Source of the DNA: a virus
Taxonomy: Duplodnaviria; Heunggongvirae; Uroviricota; Caudoviricetes
Virus record (IMG/VR): IMGVR_UViG_2563366969_000005
DNA: 30,075 nt
Direction: 5' to 3' (one strand)
Under the pieces are notes generated by a model. The model made no database searches. It was not told where the DNA came from and saw nothing but the letters and a program-made list of their open reading frames with translations. Positions 117-24,888 of this stretch are shown here, piece by piece. The translations under genes were made by a program, and so were the position numbers. How positions within the stretch are numbered: position 1 is the first letter of the stretch; each line of letters begins with the position of its first letter.

Positions 117-1157
117 TTAATCTTTCCATTTAAAACCATTACATAATGTTAAAGGATTAAATGTTACAGCCTCCTCAAGATGATCCGGGGAGAAATGTGC
201 ATACTTCATAGTTTCACGAATATTCGCATGACCGAGTATACGTTGCAGCACAAGAATATTCCCGCCATTCATCATAAAATGAGCGCCGAAGGTATGACGC
301 AGAACGTGTGTCTTTTGCCCTTCCGTCAGTTCGATATCCGTTAGTTTGAGCATCTTTTTAAACTCCTGATAGCAAGGCTTAAACATCTTTCCCTGCCTTT
401 CAGATAATTCGTCATACAACCATTTTGGGATCGGAACGGTTCGATTCTTTTTCCCTTTCGTTTTGGTGAAGGTCAGTTTATGTGGCGAGAGCTGGGGACG
501 TGTCAACCTCTCAGCCTCACCCCATCTAGCACCTGTTGCAAGACAAATCTTAACAATCATGGTGAGGTCTTCTTTTCCGTATTGCTCGCATGCCTGAAAC
601 AATTTCGGAATTTGAGACAAAGTGAGCCAAGACATTTCTTTCTCGGCTTCCTTGAAAACACGGACTCCATCAAGTGGATTTGGTAAGCTCCACTCCCCTA
701 GCCTTTTGAGCTCATTAAATACAGCCTCAAGATATTGTTGCTCACGATTGACAGTTATCGGTTTAGCAATCCATTTTGCCGGGTCTTTATGATAGCCATT
801 ATCTATCTCCCCCCGAAGTCGGCGGTCACGGTAATGAGCCCAATCTTTAGCAGTAAGGCGGGATGCAATAGGGTCGCCAAGTCCATTACACACGATTTGA
901 AGTTTAGCTAACCGCGACTTACTGGCGACCAGTGCCTGTCCGTGTAAATTATGCCAAAGCTGGATAATCTCACTTAAGCGTCGGCGGTCTTCTTTCTTGC
1001 CGAGCCACGGCTTATCCTCACTCTCACTTTTCGTAAATGCTTCGAATGCCTCGGCCTCACCTTTGGTATTGAATTGCCGACGTATACGCCGCCCTTCTCG
1101 ACCATTTGGATAGAGCTCGCATAACCATTTGCCATTTTTTTGCTTACTTACAGTCAT
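117..1157 (-). CDS. int: Phage integrase, tyrosine recombinase (P2 Int-like)
   Basis: 346-aa ORF. The C-terminus carries the tyrosine-recombinase catalytic region (HVLRHTFGAHFMMNGGNILVLQRILGHANIRETMKYAHF). Position downstream of the repressor on the same strand matches the P2 C-int arrangement. Confidence 0.93.
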   Translation of the reverse strand: MTVSKQKNGKWLCELYPNGREGRRIRRQFNTKGEAEAFEAFTKSESEDKPWLGKKEDRRRLSEIIQLWHNLHGQALVASKSRLAKLQIVCNGLGDPIASRLTAKDWAHYRDRRLRGEIDNGYHKDPAKWIAKPITVNREQQYLEAVFNELKRLGEWSLPNPLDGVRVFKEAEKEMSWLTLSQIPKLFQACEQYGKEDLTMIVKICLATGARWGEAERLTRPQLSPHKLTFTKTKGKKNRTVPIPKWLYDELSERQGKMFKPCYQEFKKMLKLTDIELTEGQKTHVLRHTFGAHFMMNGGNILVLQRILGHANIRETMKYAHFSPDHLEEAVTFNPLTLCNGFKWKD

Positions 1158-1526: not shown

Positions 1527-2387
1527 TTACACGTGTTTTTCCAATGTGAAAACTACAGCCCCGGCAGGAGTAATGTCTGTAATGTTGCATTCAAACTCAG
1601 CAGACTTATTTGACAACCTGACTTTTCCACCGGGCAAGCGAATTACATCAAAAACATCAAGAGCGCCGTCGATATCAATTAACCAGCGACCATTACTTAT
1701 ATTCGAAGCAGAACAGTCGACAAGCCAAGAGGCAGCTACACCGTCAACAAAAATCAATTCCCCTGAGTTAGAAGGAATCATTGAGGGGTCAGGATGCCAC
1801 GTTCCTGCATCCTTAAGCTCACCAGATTCAAGACGAGATTTTTTAATAGAAAAACCAGATGTGACATCTTCCCTGTTAGCTCGCATTTGCCCCTTGCCTG
1901 TTGCTAACCATTCCAGTGACGTATCGGTATCAAGAGCGCATGTAACAACAACATCACCAGGGAAAAAATCTCGCCTTACCCATGTGCTAATTGTGCCAGA
2001 GGAAATGCCGAGCAAATCACCGAGCTCCTTTTGCATGGTAAAGCCATACGCATCAAGAATCCTACGCAAAACGGTTTTACCACCATTCGTCATAATCTCG
2101 TCATAAAGCTCTTTGCCTTTTAACTTGCAACTGGCTCGCTCGTGATTTGCATTTGCAAGTTCTCCATTTACAAGCCAATTGATATCAGCTCCCGTGTCAA
2201 GACAACACCTAACTATGACATTGCCAGGTATTGCATCACGCTGAACCCAGCCGCTAACGCTGTGTTTAGCGATACCTAGCAGGTCAGCCAAATCCTTTTG
2301 CATCTTGACCCCATAGGCTGACATTAAGCGTTCCAATACGCCGTTCGTTGCACTAACACGCCACTGAACATCAAGCTCAGAACTCAT
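1527..2387 (-). CDS. Prophage repressor, CI-type, with tandemly duplicated N-terminal HTH domain
   Basis: 286-aa ORF with AGGGG Shine-Dalgarno upstream of the ATG at 2387. Residues about 15-78 and 104-168 are clear paralogous copies (shared motifs AYG..MQK.L.DLLGI, W..RD..PG.V.V.C.LDT, WL..G). Transcribed divergently from the Cox/Apl-CII operon, as expected for the immunity repressor. Confidence 0.85.
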   Translation of the reverse strand: MSSELDVQWRVSATNGVLERLMSAYGVKMQKDLADLLGIAKHSVSGWVQRDAIPGNVIVRCCLDTGADINWLVNGELANANHERASCKLKGKELYDEIMTNGGKTVLRRILDAYGFTMQKELGDLLGISSGTISTWVRRDFFPGDVVVTCALDTDTSLEWLATGKGQMRANREDVTSGFSIKKSRLESGELKDAGTWHPDPSMIPSNSGELIFVDGVAASWLVDCSASNISNGRWLIDIDGALDVFDVIRLPGGKVRLSNKSAEFECNITDITPAGAVVFTLEKHV

Positions 2388-17465: not shown

Positions 17466-17895
17466 CGCCGTGCCGCAGCTCCGAAATAATCCCGATATGC
17501 TGCGCCTTTTTGCCGACAACGGCCATACCGATTCCCGACTGGCGAGCTCGCTGTCGTTTGAAAAGGTGTACGTGCTTAACGTGGTGGTGACCGGCTTCAC
17601 CGGTGACCTTGATTTGATATTCGTGCCGGTGCAGGCGTGGCTGCGTGAACATCAGCCGGACATTATGACCACCGACGACGGGCGGGAAAAAGGATTCACC
17701 TGGATTATTGATATCAATAACGACGATTCGCTCGATATCAGTATCAGCCTGAGGCTCACCGAGCGCACGCTCGTCAAAGAGGTCGACGGCGCGCTGCACG
17801 TCAGCTATGCCCCTGAGCAGCCACTGCCTGAGCCGGTGACGCGCCCGGTCGAGCTGTACGTTAACGGCGAACTGGTGAGTAAGTGGGATGAGTGA
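17419..17895 (+). CDS. R: Tail completion protein (P2 gpR-like)
   Basis: 158 aa. ...NPDMLRLFADNGHTD...SLSFEKVYVLNVVVTGFTGDLDLIFVPVQAWLREHQPDIMTT... resembles P2 gpR. Confidence 0.85.
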   Translation: MNSMQKHKSLRKALINAVPQLRNNPDMLRLFADNGHTDSRLASSLSFEKVYVLNVVVTGFTGDLDLIFVPVQAWLREHQPDIMTTDDGREKGFTWIIDINNDDSLDISISLRLTERTLVKEVDGALHVSYAPEQPLPEPVTRPVELYVNGELVSKWDE

Positions 17896-18343
17896 ATTAA
17901 CCGCGCTGCAGGAACGCCTTGCCGGTCTGATTGCCAGCCTGTCACCGGCGGCACGTCGGCAAATGGCGGTTGAGGTTGCGAAAAAGCTGCGTACCAGTCA
18001 GCAACAGCGTATCAAGCGCCAGCAGGCACCCGACGGCACCCCGTATGCGGCACGAAAGCGCCAGCCGGTGCGGAGCAAGAAAGGTCGGATTAAACGTGAA
18101 ATGTTCGCCAAACTGCGCACCAGTCGCTTTATGAAAGCCAAAGGCAGCGACAGTGCGGCGGTGGTGGAGTTTACCGGCAAGGTGCAGCGCATGGCGCGGG
18201 TGCATCAGTACGGCCTAAAAGACCGGCCAAACCGCAACAGCCGGGATGTGCAGTACGAGGCGCGACCGTTGCTCGGATACTCTTCATCAGACTTACAAAA
18301 AGTTGAGAGTTTAATTATGGATGCTTTATGTCAACGCCATTGA
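17888..18343 (+). CDS. S: Tail completion / virion morphogenesis protein (P2 gpS-like)
   Basis: 151 aa, MSELTALQERLAGLIASLSPAARRQ... as in P2 gpS. The last ~20 codons switch abruptly to AT-rich codons. Confidence 0.85.
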   Translation: MSELTALQERLAGLIASLSPAARRQMAVEVAKKLRTSQQQRIKRQQAPDGTPYAARKRQPVRSKKGRIKREMFAKLRTSRFMKAKGSDSAAVVEFTGKVQRMARVHQYGLKDRPNRNSRDVQYEARPLLGYSSSDLQKVESLIMDALCQRH

Positions 18344-18380
18344 CTTTGGATTCGCTGAGAATTATTATATAACTCAGCGA

Positions 18381-18442
18381 TAGAGGTGGACTGGTGTCTA
18401 GGTGGGCGTGCCCACTGAGTTGGGTTCGATTCCCTAACCTCG
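18381..18442 (+). other. tRNA-like fragment (T-arm/T-loop GGTTCGATTCC with partial acceptor 3' strand); not an intact tRNA
   Basis: GGTTCGATTCC (18423-18433) is the canonical T-loop consensus, flanked by an imperfect T-stem (TTGGG/CCCTA) and preceded by a short hairpin (GTGGG-CGTG-CCCAC). There is not enough sequence for D and anticodon arms. It overlaps the stop codon of the minus-strand cargo gene. Confidence 0.35.
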
Positions 18443-19270
18443 TATTATTCCTCTCGATATTTTTATTGCTGGGTTTTCCTTTCTTATTTCATTTTTAATT
18501 TGCTCATCACAAATTAAATAATCTATGTTTTTTGCTTTAACAAGTTCTTTAACGCTAATGTTAATTGAATTTAATAGATTTGCATTCCGCATGTTAGCCC
18601 CTTCATAAGTAACGGATTTAAAATCACATCCTTTTAATATGCAGCTTTTCATTTCGCCATCTGTAAAATACCCCCCTTCAAAACTGCAGTTTTCGAAAGT
18701 GACATTTTGAAAACATGTATTAAATGCCTTAATATTTCTTAGCTTGCAGTTTTTGAATTTAACACTCTTAACTCTATTGCCTGTAATATTTAGAGCTTGA
18801 ATTGTGCAATTATCGAAAGAACAATCTCTAATGTATGATTCGCTCATATTCAAGCCGGTTAAGTCAGCGTCTTTAAAATGTAAATATTTGATAGTGGACA
18901 TTTTATCAAGTTCAATCCTTGGAACTTGAATGTTATATATTCCTTTAGCATTTAACTGACGTATGATTTTTATCTTCATAATATTCAGTTCTGCAGAAGA
19001 ATGCTTTGCCAGATTTTCAAGATCTTCAATTAGTTCGTGAATAGCATCTTTATTTTGCCTTTTATTTTCAAAATAGTAAAGAATCACACCCAAAACAAGA
19101 AAGTCTAAAATTGAAGAATTTGCATTAACAAGAAAATTCTCCATGAATTTTGAGTTGTAGTTATCATTATAAACAGACAACCCTACTATAAGCCCGGAGT
19201 ATAAAAAAAAGATACCTATAATATATTTCATATTGCTTATTGTACGCCTAAAAGATGAAGTTCTTTTCAT
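18434..19270 (-). CDS. AT-rich membrane-anchored pentapeptide-repeat protein (cargo gene between S and V)
   Basis: Start chosen at MKRTSSF... (ATG at 19270, GGCAGGTAG upstream); the ORF-track start is 19315. Two hydrophobic helices (YIIGIFFLYSGLIVGLSVY, ILDFLVLGVILYYF) are followed by repeats of the pentapeptide type (ADLTGLNMSES, CSFDNCTIQALNITGNRVKSVKFKNCKLRNIKAFNTCFQNVTFENCSFEG...). Very AT-rich compared with its neighbours. Confidence 0.8.
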   Translation of the reverse strand: MKRTSSFRRTISNMKYIIGIFFLYSGLIVGLSVYNDNYNSKFMENFLVNANSSILDFLVLGVILYYFENKRQNKDAIHELIEDLENLAKHSSAELNIMKIKIIRQLNAKGIYNIQVPRIELDKMSTIKYLHFKDADLTGLNMSESYIRDCSFDNCTIQALNITGNRVKSVKFKNCKLRNIKAFNTCFQNVTFENCSFEGGYFTDGEMKSCILKGCDFKSVTYEGANMRNANLLNSINISVKELVKAKNIDYLICDEQIKNEIRKENPAIKISRGIIRG

Positions 19271-19407
19271 TACTACCTGCCATATGTTTTGTGTGATTTT
19301 CGAATGAGTCAACACTCAAATGATACATGAATGCACACCGAATTGTGTAGAAGAGCATACAGCTGAATCGTTTTGCTCTTGGCTTTAACAATCGGCATTC
19401 TTTTTTC

Positions 19408-20043
19408 ATGAACACATTAAACACCATTCAAGAGTTAGCACGTGCCATTCGCAACCTCATCCGCTCAGGCGTGGTGACTGAGGTCGATACTGTGCAGGGG
19501 CTGTGCCGCGTACAAAGCGGCGGGATCCAGACTACATGGCTGAACTGGCTGACCACCCGCGCCGGTCGTTCGCGGACGTGGTGGGCTCCCTCGGTCGGTG
19601 AGCAGGTTCTGCTGCTGGCAATCGGTGGCGAGCTTGATACCGCTTTCGTGCTGCCGGGTATTTTCTCCGACGATAACCCCGCCCCGTCTGCCTCGGCGGA
19701 TGCGTGGCATGTGGCTTTCCCTGATGGTGCGGTCATTGAGTACGAGCCCGAAACCGGCGCGCTGACGGTCAGCGGCATAAAAACGGCCGACGTGACGGCA
19801 TCGGAGTCCATCACCGCAACCGTACCGCTGGTACTGGTGAAAGCCTCGACCAGTATCACCCTCGACACCCCGGAGGTGATTTGCACCAATAAGCTAACGA
19901 CGGCGACGCTTGAGGTGCAGAAAGGCGGCAAGATGAGCGGCAATATCGAACATACCGGCGGGTCACTGTCGTCTAATGGCAAGGTACTCCACACCCATAA
20001 ACACCCGGGCGACAGCGGCGGGCAAACGGGGGCACCGTTATGA
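19408..20043 (+). CDS. V: Baseplate spike / assembly protein (P2 gpV-like)
   Basis: 211 aa. MNTLNTIQELARAIRNLIRSG...HTHKHPGDSGGQTGAPL matches P2 gpV including the C-terminal HTHKHPGDSGG motif. Confidence 0.92.
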   Translation: MNTLNTIQELARAIRNLIRSGVVTEVDTVQGLCRVQSGGIQTTWLNWLTTRAGRSRTWWAPSVGEQVLLLAIGGELDTAFVLPGIFSDDNPAPSASADAWHVAFPDGAVIEYEPETGALTVSGIKTADVTASESITATVPLVLVKASTSITLDTPEVICTNKLTTATLEVQKGGKMSGNIEHTGGSLSSNGKVLHTHKHPGDSGGQTGAPL

Positions 20044-23709: not shown

Positions 23710-24888
23710 ATGAGTGATTTTCACCACGGCGTGCAGGTGCTTGAGATTAACGACGGTACCCGCGTCATTTCCACGGTCGCAACCGCAATCGTCGGCATGG
23801 TCTGCACGGCCAGCGATGCAGATGCCGCGACATTTCCCCTCAACGAGCCGGTACTGATTACCAATGTGCAGAGCGCCATTGCAAAAGCCGGTAAAAAAGG
23901 CACGCTGTCTGCTTCCCTGCAGGCTATCGCCGACCAGTCAAAACCCGTCACCGTAGTCGTGCGCGTTGCCGAAGGTACGGGAGAAGACGCCGAAGCGCAG
24001 ACCATTTCTAACATCATCGGCGGCACGGATGAGAACGGTAAATACACCGGTATCAAGGCGCTGTTGACTGCCGAAGCGGTCACCGGCGTTAAGCCGCGTA
24101 TTCTCGGCGTGCCGGGTCTCGACACGCAGGAAGTCGCAACCGCACTCGCGTCGGTCTGTATCAGCCTGCGCGCCTTTGGCTATGTCAGCGCATGGGGCTG
24201 TAAGACCATTTCCGAAGCGATGGCCTATCGCGAGAATTTCAGTCAGCGCGAGCTAATGGTCATCTGGCCTGACTTCCTCGCATGGGACACCACCACTAAC
24301 GCCACCGCAACAGCCTACGCCACCGCTCGCGCGCTCGGCCTGCGCGCCTACATCGACCAGACTGTCGGCTGGCATAAAACCCTGTCTAACGTCGGCGTGC
24401 AGGGTGTCACCGGCATCAGTGCCTCAGTGTTTTGGGATTTGCAGGCATCCGGCACCGATGCTGATCTGCTCAACGAGGCCGGGGTCACGACACTGGTGCG
24501 TAAGGATGGCTTCCGCTTTTGGGGTAACCGCACCTGCTCTGATGACCCGCTTTTCCTGTTTGAGAACTACACCCGCACCGCGCAGGTGCTGGCCGACACG
24601 ATGGCCGAGGCGCACATGTGGGCGGTCGATAAGCCCATCACCGCATCGCTTATCCGCGACATTGTCGACGGCATTAACGCCAAATTCCGCGAGCTGAAAT
24701 CAAATGGCTACATCGTGGACGGTGAATGCTGGTTCGACGAGGAATCGAACGATAAGGAAACCCTCAAGGCCGGGAAACTGTATATCGACTACGACTATAC
24801 GCCGGTTCCACCACTGGAAAGCCTGACCCTGCGCCAGCGTATCACCGATAAATATCTGGTGAATCTGGCCGAATCGGTCAACAGCTAA
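23710..24888 (+). CDS. FI: Tail sheath protein (P2 gpFI-like)
   Basis: 392-aa ORF, first gene after the G terminator. Size and order match FI. Confidence 0.9.
   Translation: MSDFHHGVQVLEINDGTRVISTVATAIVGMVCTASDADAATFPLNEPVLITNVQSAIAKAGKKGTLSASLQAIADQSKPVTVVVRVAEGTGEDAEAQTISNIIGGTDENGKYTGIKALLTAEAVTGVKPRILGVPGLDTQEVATALASVCISLRAFGYVSAWGCKTISEAMAYRENFSQRELMVIWPDFLAWDTTTNATATAYATARALGLRAYIDQTVGWHKTLSNVGVQGVTGISASVFWDLQASGTDADLLNEAGVTTLVRKDGFRFWGNRTCSDDPLFLFENYTRTAQVLADTMAEAHMWAVDKPITASLIRDIVDGINAKFRELKSNGYIVDGECWFDEESNDKETLKAGKLYIDYDYTPVPPLESLTLRQRITDKYLVNLAESVNS

Follow-up and report, generated by a model that had tools for sequence, protein, structure and literature searches.

There are a number of described systems in which a nucleic acid is paired with a potentially harmful protein. 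Among the type I toxin-antitoxin systems, txpA/RatA and bsrG/SR4 of Bacillus subtilis have a convergent antisense RNA that overlaps the 3' end of the gene for a membrane protein, and the toxin is a peptide of fewer than 60 amino acids. Phages P1 and P7 encode the C4 RNA and satellite P4 encodes the CI RNA, which are immunity RNAs processed by RNase P. Other RNAs, such as mascRNA, tmRNA, and the 3' TLS of plant viruses, keep the "top half" of a tRNA and dispense with decoding. YrlA is also a tRNA-like module. In the type III toxin-antitoxin and abortive infection systems (ToxIN, AbiF-RCd22), a small structured RNA gene is found beside a potentially harmful protein gene, and the two are co-inherited on prophages and plasmids. 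The RNA gene is located upstream, on the strand of the toxin gene, and consists of tandem repeats, and the proteins of these systems include endoribonucleases (ToxN/AbiQ, CptN, TenpN). In C. difficile, the prophage AbiF toxin is neutralised by the neighbouring noncoding RNA RCd22 (PMC12373285). In the Hailong system, the membrane effector HalA is kept inactive by an oligodeoxyadenylate that is made by HalB (PMC13276650; PDB 9nyi).

The locus described here is in a P2/186-like prophage of E. coli. The window (the whole stretch of DNA that was analysed) is 30,075 nucleotides long. It possesses a low-GC cargo segment between the tail-completion gene S and the baseplate gene V, and the sole gene within the cargo, according to the list of open reading frames, encodes a pentapeptide-repeat protein (PRP). 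Comparison of homologous loci indicates that a conserved, structured, tRNA-shaped RNA element is present at 18380-18442 on the + strand. It is very probably a genuine RNA gene, with predicted expression, that is absent from Rfam 15 and from the PGAP annotation. The features of the locus are:

17888-18343, + strand: tail-completion gene S, the left flank of the cargo
18280-18343, + strand: low-GC replacement of the last 20-21 codons (approximately) of S (Midge alignment, GC profile)
18280-19407, no strand assigned: low-GC cargo segment, from the junction inside S to the start codon of V (composition profile)
18340-18345, + strand: -35 box TTGACT, which contains the S stop codon TGA at 18341-18343 (promoter scan, 10/12)
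18353-18379, no strand assigned: lineage-specific hairpin CGCTGAG...CTCAGCG (variant comparison)
18363-18368, + strand: -10 box TATTAT, 17 nt past the -35 box (promoter scan)
18380-18442, + strand: tRNA-like element, with ATA at its 5' end and G18442 at its 3' end (family covariance model R1)
18383-18387 and 18437-18441, + strand: acceptor-like helix of 5 bp, GAGGT/ACCTC
18389-18398, + strand: D-like hairpin GAC-TGGT-GTC with a UGG loop
18401-18416, + strand: middle hairpin GGTGGG-CGTG-CCCACT of 6 bp, without an anticodon loop
18420-18436, + strand: T arm TTGGG-TTCGATT-CCCTA, with the T loop at 18425-31
18434-19270, - strand: PRP partner gene, 278 aa, with its stop codon inside the T stem of the element (ORF list, PGAP annotation)
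19408-20043, + strand: baseplate gene V, the right flank of the cargo

The element is like a canonical tRNA in its four-helix cloverleaf, its T loop GGUUCGAUUCC, the GG of its D loop, and an acceptor-like helix that is stacked on the T arm. It is unlike one in its acceptor of 5 bp rather than 7, its D stem of 3 bp with a 4-nt loop, and its lack of an anticodon loop and of CCA. It resembles mascRNA, tmRNA, and the plant-virus structures in keeping the top half without decoding, but it differs from all of these modules in being tied to one protein-coding partner gene. In being a small structured RNA gene that is co-inherited, on prophages and plasmids, with the gene for a potentially harmful protein, the element recalls the type III systems, and the proposed logic of an RNA that neutralises a protein may be shared as well. 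However, the PRP is a membrane pentapeptide protein and not an endoribonuclease, and the element is single-copy, convergent, and tRNA-shaped rather than a tandem array. With the type I systems the locus shares its prophage and plasmid locations and a convergent layout, in which the predicted RNA gene reaches into the 3' end of the gene for a membrane protein. In this case the protein has 278 aa with a large soluble domain, and what is conserved in the RNA is its tRNA-like fold rather than a long antisense region. Hailong likewise pairs a membrane effector that has pentapeptide repeats with a nucleic acid that is produced constitutively, and this is the basis of the guard analogy used below. 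The order of the domains is reversed in the PRP (its transmembrane part is N-terminal), HalB is lacking, and the nucleic acid would be a genome-encoded RNA. C4 and CI may be analogous as small stable phage-borne regulatory RNAs that are matured by the tRNA-processing machinery of the host, but the element has no Rfam C4 match, a different fold, and no target complementarity that could be found.

The cargo segment has a GC content of about 30%, compared to about 60% around it. Of 5426 complete E. coli genomes, 14 carry it, as does a single phage record, vB_EcoM-613R3, in the S-V slot every time, and the studied region is 99.8-99.9% identical to these. In cargo-free 186-like phages S is joined straight to V. 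When the window was aligned to one of these, phage Midge, identity was lost past ...TTGCTCGG, inside S. The comparison with Midge and 186-type genomes therefore places the left recombination junction near 18280, about 100 nt to the left of the tRNA-like element, and not at the element, which the preliminary description had placed at the edge of the insertion. The GC content falls at the 3' end of S from 0.58-0.62 to 0.30-0.39, and the open reading frame with its replaced end is still a full-length match to Pfam Phage_tail_S. A cargo that brings its own low-GC end of S, with the junction inside that gene, points to homologous exchange between P2-like phages.

The preliminary description had reported an 11-mer with the T-loop consensus, GGTTCGATTCC, at this site. 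Its position on the + strand (18423-18433) is exact, and the window has no second exact copy. When one mismatch is allowed there are three matches, compared to 0.51 expected, and none of 100 shuffles reached three. Several details that had been given with it were also confirmed. The T stem is imperfect (TTGGG/CCCTA, one U·U mismatch), the stop codon of the PRP gene on the - strand, read here as CTA (18434-18436), is inside the 3' strand of the T stem, and the hairpin GCTGAG/CTCAGC is present at 18354-18378. The acceptor-like 3' strand had been considered partial, but ACCTC (18437-18441) has a complete 5' partner, GAGGT (18383-18387). It had also been stated that there was no room for D and anticodon arms, whereas this gap is occupied by a D-like hairpin (18389-18398) and a middle hairpin (18401-18416).

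The family covariance model R1 gives 83.3 bits at the element and has no other match in the window. The element has kept the elbow-forming parts of a tRNA, which are the GG of the D loop and the T loop, along with the 5-bp acceptor-like helix. Going by textbook tRNA structure, the D-loop TGG and GGTTCGATTCCC supply the counterparts of G18/G19 and psi55/C56, the elbow partners. The acceptor and T helices would stack to 10 bp and not to 12. In the place of the anticodon arm is a short hairpin that is free in its sequence and loop size, and therefore the element cannot decode. A reading as an integron attC-like site was rejected upon inspection, as there are no R'/R'' core sites and a cloverleaf is not a single imperfect hairpin. 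A short open reading frame within the element (GTG GAC TGG ... TGA) was dismissed because it crosses the middle hairpin, which is not conserved.

Homologues of the cargo protein were retrieved and the DNA beyond their stop codons was read. Sixteen distinct enterobacterial variants were aligned to the covariance model, and a set of 18 variants adds plasmid copies and the copy of a P2-like contig, L268. In the 16 variants, standard pairs fill 88.3% of the cells, compared to 44-54% with slid partners. Changes on both sides were found in eight pairs, against 3.4±1.3 in shuffles (0/500), a control that overstates independence since many of the variants are closely related, in a small family of about 42 protein clusters. 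Five of the six pairs of the middle helix covary. Across the 18 variants, plasmid copies included, all five acceptor positions have at least two types of Watson-Crick pair, with the versions GAGGU/ACCUC, GAGGC/GCUUC, GGAG/CUCC, AACUG/CAGUU, and AACGG/CCGUU. The middle hairpin has at least 11 different, unrelated stem sequences in this set, with loops of 3-8 nt, and is more stable than 95% of shuffles in 14 of the 18. RNAalifold recovered three of the four helices (acceptor, middle, and T) when the structure was not supplied. On a plain MAFFT alignment it recovered only the acceptor helix and a pairing of invariant bases in the D/T region, probably because the variable middle hairpin is misaligned by MAFFT. 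The D-like stem is the weakest helix, having 3 bp and no double compensatory change, and the invariant GGUGUC could pair instead with GAUUCC, which fits the data equally well. The two outer pairs of the T stem are often mismatched or bulged. GGTTCGATTCCC and TGG are invariant in all 16 enterobacterial variants. The plasmid copies keep the T loop, and in L268 it is TTCAATT.

Among the variants, identity to the window copy is 70-95% for the element and 65-83% for the adjacent coding DNA, the near-identical L016 being left out of both ranges. It had been considered that the 11-mer could be merely part of a conserved coding sequence in homologues of the cargo gene. This is not the case. In the window it is past the stop codon, as is most of the element, and the tails of the homologous open reading frames either stop before the element or cross it in two different frames (...RGQGIEPNSVGKPT and ...EVRESNPTQ). 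Since these tails differ in frame or end before the element, its conservation is not protein-coding.

A promoter appears to be conserved ahead of the element. TTGACT-17-TATTAT is the best promoter-like site of the region (10/12), and is predicted to be of the sigma-70 type. All 16 enterobacterial variants have a -35 box of TTGAC(T/A) and the 17-nt spacing. In the -10 box, A2 is found in 16/16 and T6 in 15/16. L268 has TTGACG-17-TACTGT, and thus 17 enterobacterial variants fit TTGAC(T/A/G)-17-NANNNT. Promoter-like sites with 16-nt spacing were found on the plasmids, TTGACT-16-TAAAAT in Acinetobacter (L138) and TTGTAA-16-TATNCT in both Psychrobacter copies. The -10 box is followed by the conserved ATAGAG after 10-12 nt (16 nt in one variant), and the promoter spacer is only 51-68% identical, again leaving out L016. 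In many phage copies the -35 box provides the stop codon of S. The hairpin at 18353-18379 covers the promoter spacer, the -10 box, and the predicted start, but it is present in the window and near-identical copies only, and is replaced by unrelated sequence in L001, L004, L005, and others.

Transcription would start near 18375, a few nucleotides upstream of the element. No intrinsic terminator was found within 110 nt downstream of the element in 15 variants. Given this and the tRNA-like top half, the simplest assumption is maturation by RNase P at the 5' end and trimming at the 3' end. On that assumption, the transcript is probably matured by tRNA-processing enzymes to a stable RNA of about 60 nt.

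The element was found at every homologue of the cargo gene for which the DNA was read, down to 24% amino acid identity (range 24-100%). In each case the two are convergent, with the element directly at the stop codon of the gene. The sites include P2/186-like prophages of six enterobacterial genera, chromosomal sites that are not in phages, and plasmids of Psychrobacter and Acinetobacter. P2-like S-V slots with the element are present in Klebsiella, Edwardsiella, Yersinia, Salmonella, and Enterobacter. S-V slots with an additional FRG-domain gene are found in L133 and L134, and in L268 the module is beside ogr/D rather than between S and V. Two chromosomal sites outside phages adjoin umuDC, one in Citrobacter (L005) and one that also has a nearby Abi_C gene (L048). 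The plasmids are small and carry full-length homologues at 24-29% amino acid identity, each with a tRNA-like element in convergent orientation directly at the stop codon. On one of these, pTCM-2, the module adjoins RelE/ParE and a restriction endonuclease. The protein family has about 42 clusters in 5.8 billion proteins, with an Enterobacterales clade and a Moraxellaceae clade. One homologue, P0036 from Atlantibacter, is an outlier.

DNA-pattern searches that were blind to the protein yielded family members only where the PRP gene was present, and neither these nor the protein-led searches ever found the element without the gene. A scan of contigs with GACTGGTGTC...GGGTTCGATTCCC gave 23 matches in CPR bacteria, Planctomycetota, and others, which are unusual tRNAs or tRNA-like genes and not this family. 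With the same pattern, no enterobacterial representative genome was found to carry the element. A viral scan with GCTGGYGC...GGTTCGATTCC gave ordinary tRNAs, none of them near a PRP gene. The metagenome scan for promoter and element gave mostly unrelated 3' ends of actinobacterial tmRNA and ordinary tRNAs. It contained three family members (L058, L061, and L088), of which only L058 is a new variant.

Judged by these loci, the module is one that moves as a unit between the slots of P2/186-like prophages, chromosomal sites, and small plasmids. The element is linked strictly to a single protein, both in cargo slots and next to toxin-antitoxin, restriction, and Abi genes, which suggests a two-component module. 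The comparison thus suggests an RNA-protein module that has not been described. A search of the literature yielded no description of a pentapeptide protein paired with a tRNA-like RNA, nor of the protein accession or the PHROG.

The PRP is predicted to have two transmembrane helices, followed by a helical linker and, at its C terminus, a pentapeptide-repeat beta-helix (AlphaFold model, hydropathy). The N-terminal half of the AlphaFold model is of low confidence (pLDDT about 40-60). The soluble domain has about 165 aa, and the repeat domain is basic (pI 8.9). The second transmembrane helix is the most conserved stretch of the family. The protein matches Pfam Pentapeptide_4 with 3.5e-16, and its matches to protein families are to pentapeptide-repeat families only. 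PADLOC gave no meaningful match, and PHROGs gave only phrog_12514, an entry without an assigned function. HalA (NF051894) is the best NCBIfam match, with 44.1 bits against a cutoff of 250, and covers the repeat region only. The HalA structure (PDB 9nyi) matched with E 0.0016 over 80 residues. The Foldseek matches include repeats of the MfpA/AlbG/Qnr type and are generic pentapeptide proteins only, with HalA absent among the 50 best that were listed. A structural kinship to HalA was not supported. With the match limited to the repeats and no HalB beside the gene, HalA is an analogue at most. A second gene that could correspond to the HalB nucleotidyltransferase was not found in the S-V slot of the window, and the neighbour in L133 and L134 is the FRG-domain gene, not a nucleotidyltransferase.

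Two origins had been offered for the T-arm sequence in the preliminary description, a footprint of the site-specific or illegitimate event that delivered the cargo gene, or a tRNA-mimicking RNA element. The element is near the left end of the cargo, as would be expected of a relic tRNA 3' fragment or att site. The 3' halves of tRNA genes are common att components and partial tRNA genes arise in this way, and a footprint of this kind is recognised by a direct repeat or a complete tRNA gene at the other end (PMC9897764). The viral contig L015 has an unrelated mini tRNA-like sequence of 49 nt, and at a distance of about 1.7 kb there is an integrase gene at the end of the contig. At the present locus, however, neither a direct nor an inverted repeat of the element flanks the cargo (18200-19500), there is no complete tRNA partner in the window, and there is no integrase in the S-V slot. 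No donor tRNA could be matched beyond the T arm. The element matches in the 5426 E. coli genomes were the 14 copies of the same cargo only, and BLAST against phages gave only matches of the 25-nt T arm to T5-like tRNA-Gly (E >= 0.6). The junction with cargo-free phages is elsewhere, inside S. If the element were a relic, one would also not expect three helices to be maintained by compensatory changes, nor a promoter and an unvarying placement beside the gene to be retained on three kinds of replicon. The scar reading is already largely refuted by these comparisons and must be regarded as very improbable, and it is the tRNA-mimicking RNA, with its covarying helices, its conserved promoter, and its strict co-occurrence with one protein family, that is supported. 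Matches to a T arm beside other cargo genes should not be presumed to be att scars, as the comparison of homologues overturned that reading here. The same description had held that the sequence is not an intact tRNA. This part stood, as neither ARAGORN nor Rfam has a tRNA model that scores above noise, but the structure is a whole cloverleaf and more than a T arm. A functional decoding tRNA of an unusual kind, or a tmRNA-like molecule, would explain the T-loop consensus, the GG of the D loop, and the acceptor-like helix, and L131 has a middle hairpin with a 7-nt loop and the highest tRNA-Sec score of the family (24.2 bits against a gathering score of 47). In the window copy, the Rfam tRNA-Sec model aligns from end to end at 18383-18441, with 14.1 bits and E = 4 against that threshold of 47. 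The scores of the family, 14-24 bits, are thus far under it, and every model of the Rfam tRNA clan (CL00001) is below threshold. Besides this weak match, no Rfam 15 family, C4 included, was found over the element at E <= 10. ARAGORN identified no tRNA or tmRNA genes in the window, none at the element in the related loci that were scanned, and no tag reading frame with a tRNA-like domain in the window. The acceptor of 5 bp, the middle loop of 3-8 nt without a conserved anticodon, and the missing CCA are also against decoding, and this explanation can practically be dismissed. By its sequence features the element is tRNA-shaped and is not a tRNA. It has also been considered that the - strand is the functional one, with a mirror cloverleaf that would serve as a 3' UTR stabiliser or terminator for the PRP mRNA, or would insulate the PRP gene and the late operon from each other in both directions. 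On this strand the mirror cloverleaf is the minimum-energy fold (over 111 nt, z = -3.9). The PRP mRNA has to extend into the element, in which its stop codon is located, and a canonical terminator is absent for both genes. The variants favour the + strand, opposite the cargo gene, with 19 G·U cells compared to two A·C cells, which would be the G·U cells of the - strand. The invariant loop matches the tRNA T-loop consensus on the + strand only, the conserved promoter points into the element on that strand, and on the - strand no U tract follows the structure. Function of the - strand is improbable.

The explanation that best accounts for these observations, and which we hold to be somewhat more probable than the remainder together, is that a promoter-equipped, tRNA-shaped RNA and the PRP form a fixed module in which the RNA is the regulatory partner of the PRP. 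Whether it controls the PRP is, taken alone, an evenly balanced question. As to the mechanism, we tentatively prefer one in which the RNA would bind the basic cytoplasmic repeat domain and hold a potentially membrane-damaging PRP inactive. The RNA would restrain the protein in the manner of a type III antitoxin or a Hailong guard. If the RNA were lost, cleaved, or sequestered during phage attack or plasmid loss, the PRP would be released. Antitoxin RNAs are usually labile, and the tRNA-like fold suggests a stable RNA, which counts against the antitoxin idea. It is possible, though unlikely, that this amounts to a two-component abortive-infection or addiction system, where the tRNA mimic guards a membrane-depolarising PRP and loss of the RNA releases it. 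By looking like the top half of a tRNA, the RNA would report the effects of a phage on tRNAs, tRNA processing, and transcription (cleavage, sequestration, or shut-off). A second option is that antisense transcription across the 3' end controls the PRP, and this we find about equally doubtful. The stop codon is inside or abuts the convergent element in all variants, and pairing with the 5' region and a terminator were not found. No terminator-like site was found between S and the element, and therefore read-through of the late operon would raise the level of the RNA. During lytic growth of the prophage, read-through past S could yield more RNA and antisense transcription into the PRP gene. Speculatively, the phage could in this way escape its own effector. 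The RNA could instead act in trans and independently of the PRP, with the gene linked by co-inheritance alone, as a decoy or competitor for an enzyme that recognises the elbow and acceptor. A tRNA-cleaving toxin or defence nuclease, RNase P, the CCA-adding enzyme, and a phage tRNA-modifying protein are possible targets. In favour of such a mimic, the invariant parts are the D and T loops of the elbow and the geometry of the acceptor, while the "anticodon" arm varies freely, and complementarity of the element to the 5' region of the PRP mRNA is no better than in shuffles (z -1.2 to +1.2). Against it, order, orientation, and abutment to the stop codon are kept down to 24% identity across prophage, chromosome, and plasmid, which would be difficult to account for if there were no functional link, and the element is never found without the gene. 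This makes an independent mimic rather unlikely.

If the prediction is true, the element represents an unannotated RNA gene family that can serve as a marker of a compact RNA-protein module. The module would be a cargo of P2/186-like prophage slots and of small Moraxellaceae plasmids. A tRNA-shaped RNA would then join the type III antitoxins, retron msDNA, and the oligo-dA of Hailong as the partner of an effector. It would also provide the first functional handle on a family of membrane pentapeptide-repeat proteins that has no known role. The whole module has about 1.1 kb (18280-19407), which is small enough for a direct test by cloning. L013 alone has a local threefold repeat of 14 nt.

The tail-completion gene S closes with ~21 codons (window 18280-18343) that are a low-GC replacement, homologous at the protein level (…LLGYSSSDLQKVESLIMDALCQRH). 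Thus, the cargo, a pentapeptide-repeat gene in the slot between S and the baseplate gene V, seems to carry a piece of S along with it. This piece seems to derive from a different P2-like lineage. The -35 box of the tRNA-shaped small RNA includes the S stop codon in many copies. A terminator-like hairpin followed by a T run is located within the conserved S coding sequence (window 18223-18244, minus strand), downstream of the cargo gene and ~190 nt from its stop codon. Cargo transcripts could end there. The number of such terminator-like sites is in line with chance (2 found vs 2.4 expected).

In the partner protein, which the cargo gene encodes, conservation is highest over the second predicted transmembrane helix (LVNANSSILDFLVLGVILYYFE; residues ~48-70, window 19060-19130, minus strand). 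The retention of this helix even in plasmid homologues at 24-29% identity hints that it could serve in a channel or in oligomerisation. Two Enterobacter-type prophages carry a further cargo gene in the S-V slot, upstream of the pentapeptide gene:

L133, 481-1428: gene for an FRG-domain protein, 315 aa
L134, 1792-2739: gene for an FRG-domain protein, 315 aa

In the variant of the tRNA-like element on viral contig IMGVR_UViG_2627853930_000003 (L013, 2700-2760, minus strand), the 14-nt 3' end (GATTCCCTAACCTC) is present as three tandem copies, and the repeat lengthens the stretch between the element and the coding end of the cargo gene. The copy in Acinetobacter pittii pTCM-2 (2300-2345, minus strand) has an additional hairpin that separates the middle arm from the T arm and resembles the long variable arm found in class II tRNAs.

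The T-loop 11-mer has two further, inexact copies in the window:

438-448, plus strand: copy with one mismatch
24741-24751, minus strand: copy with one mismatch

These are probably chance matches, since neither ARAGORN nor the family's covariance model (R1) finds anything at either site.

Other viral contigs contain tRNA-like sequences that are smaller still and share the GACTGGTGTC hairpin and the T arm with the element:

L015, 23-69, minus strand
L008, 7166-7205, plus strand
L017, 24-87, minus strand

They score 24-30 bits with R1, and none of the three has a pentapeptide gene nearby. The L015 version (49 nt) lacks a middle arm, and its acceptor is 7 bp long; it lies at a contig end, ~1.7 kb from a tyrosine-recombinase gene.

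Among the genome-contig matches (L019-L041), the tRNA-like genes have a GACUGGUGUC D arm with a 4-nt D loop. These genes are carried by Saccharibacteria and other Patescibacteria, Planctomycetota, and other MAGs. Some are 70-73-nt tRNAs (Met, Ala, Pro) according to ARAGORN, and the Saccharibacteria set ends in ...CCTCCACCA.
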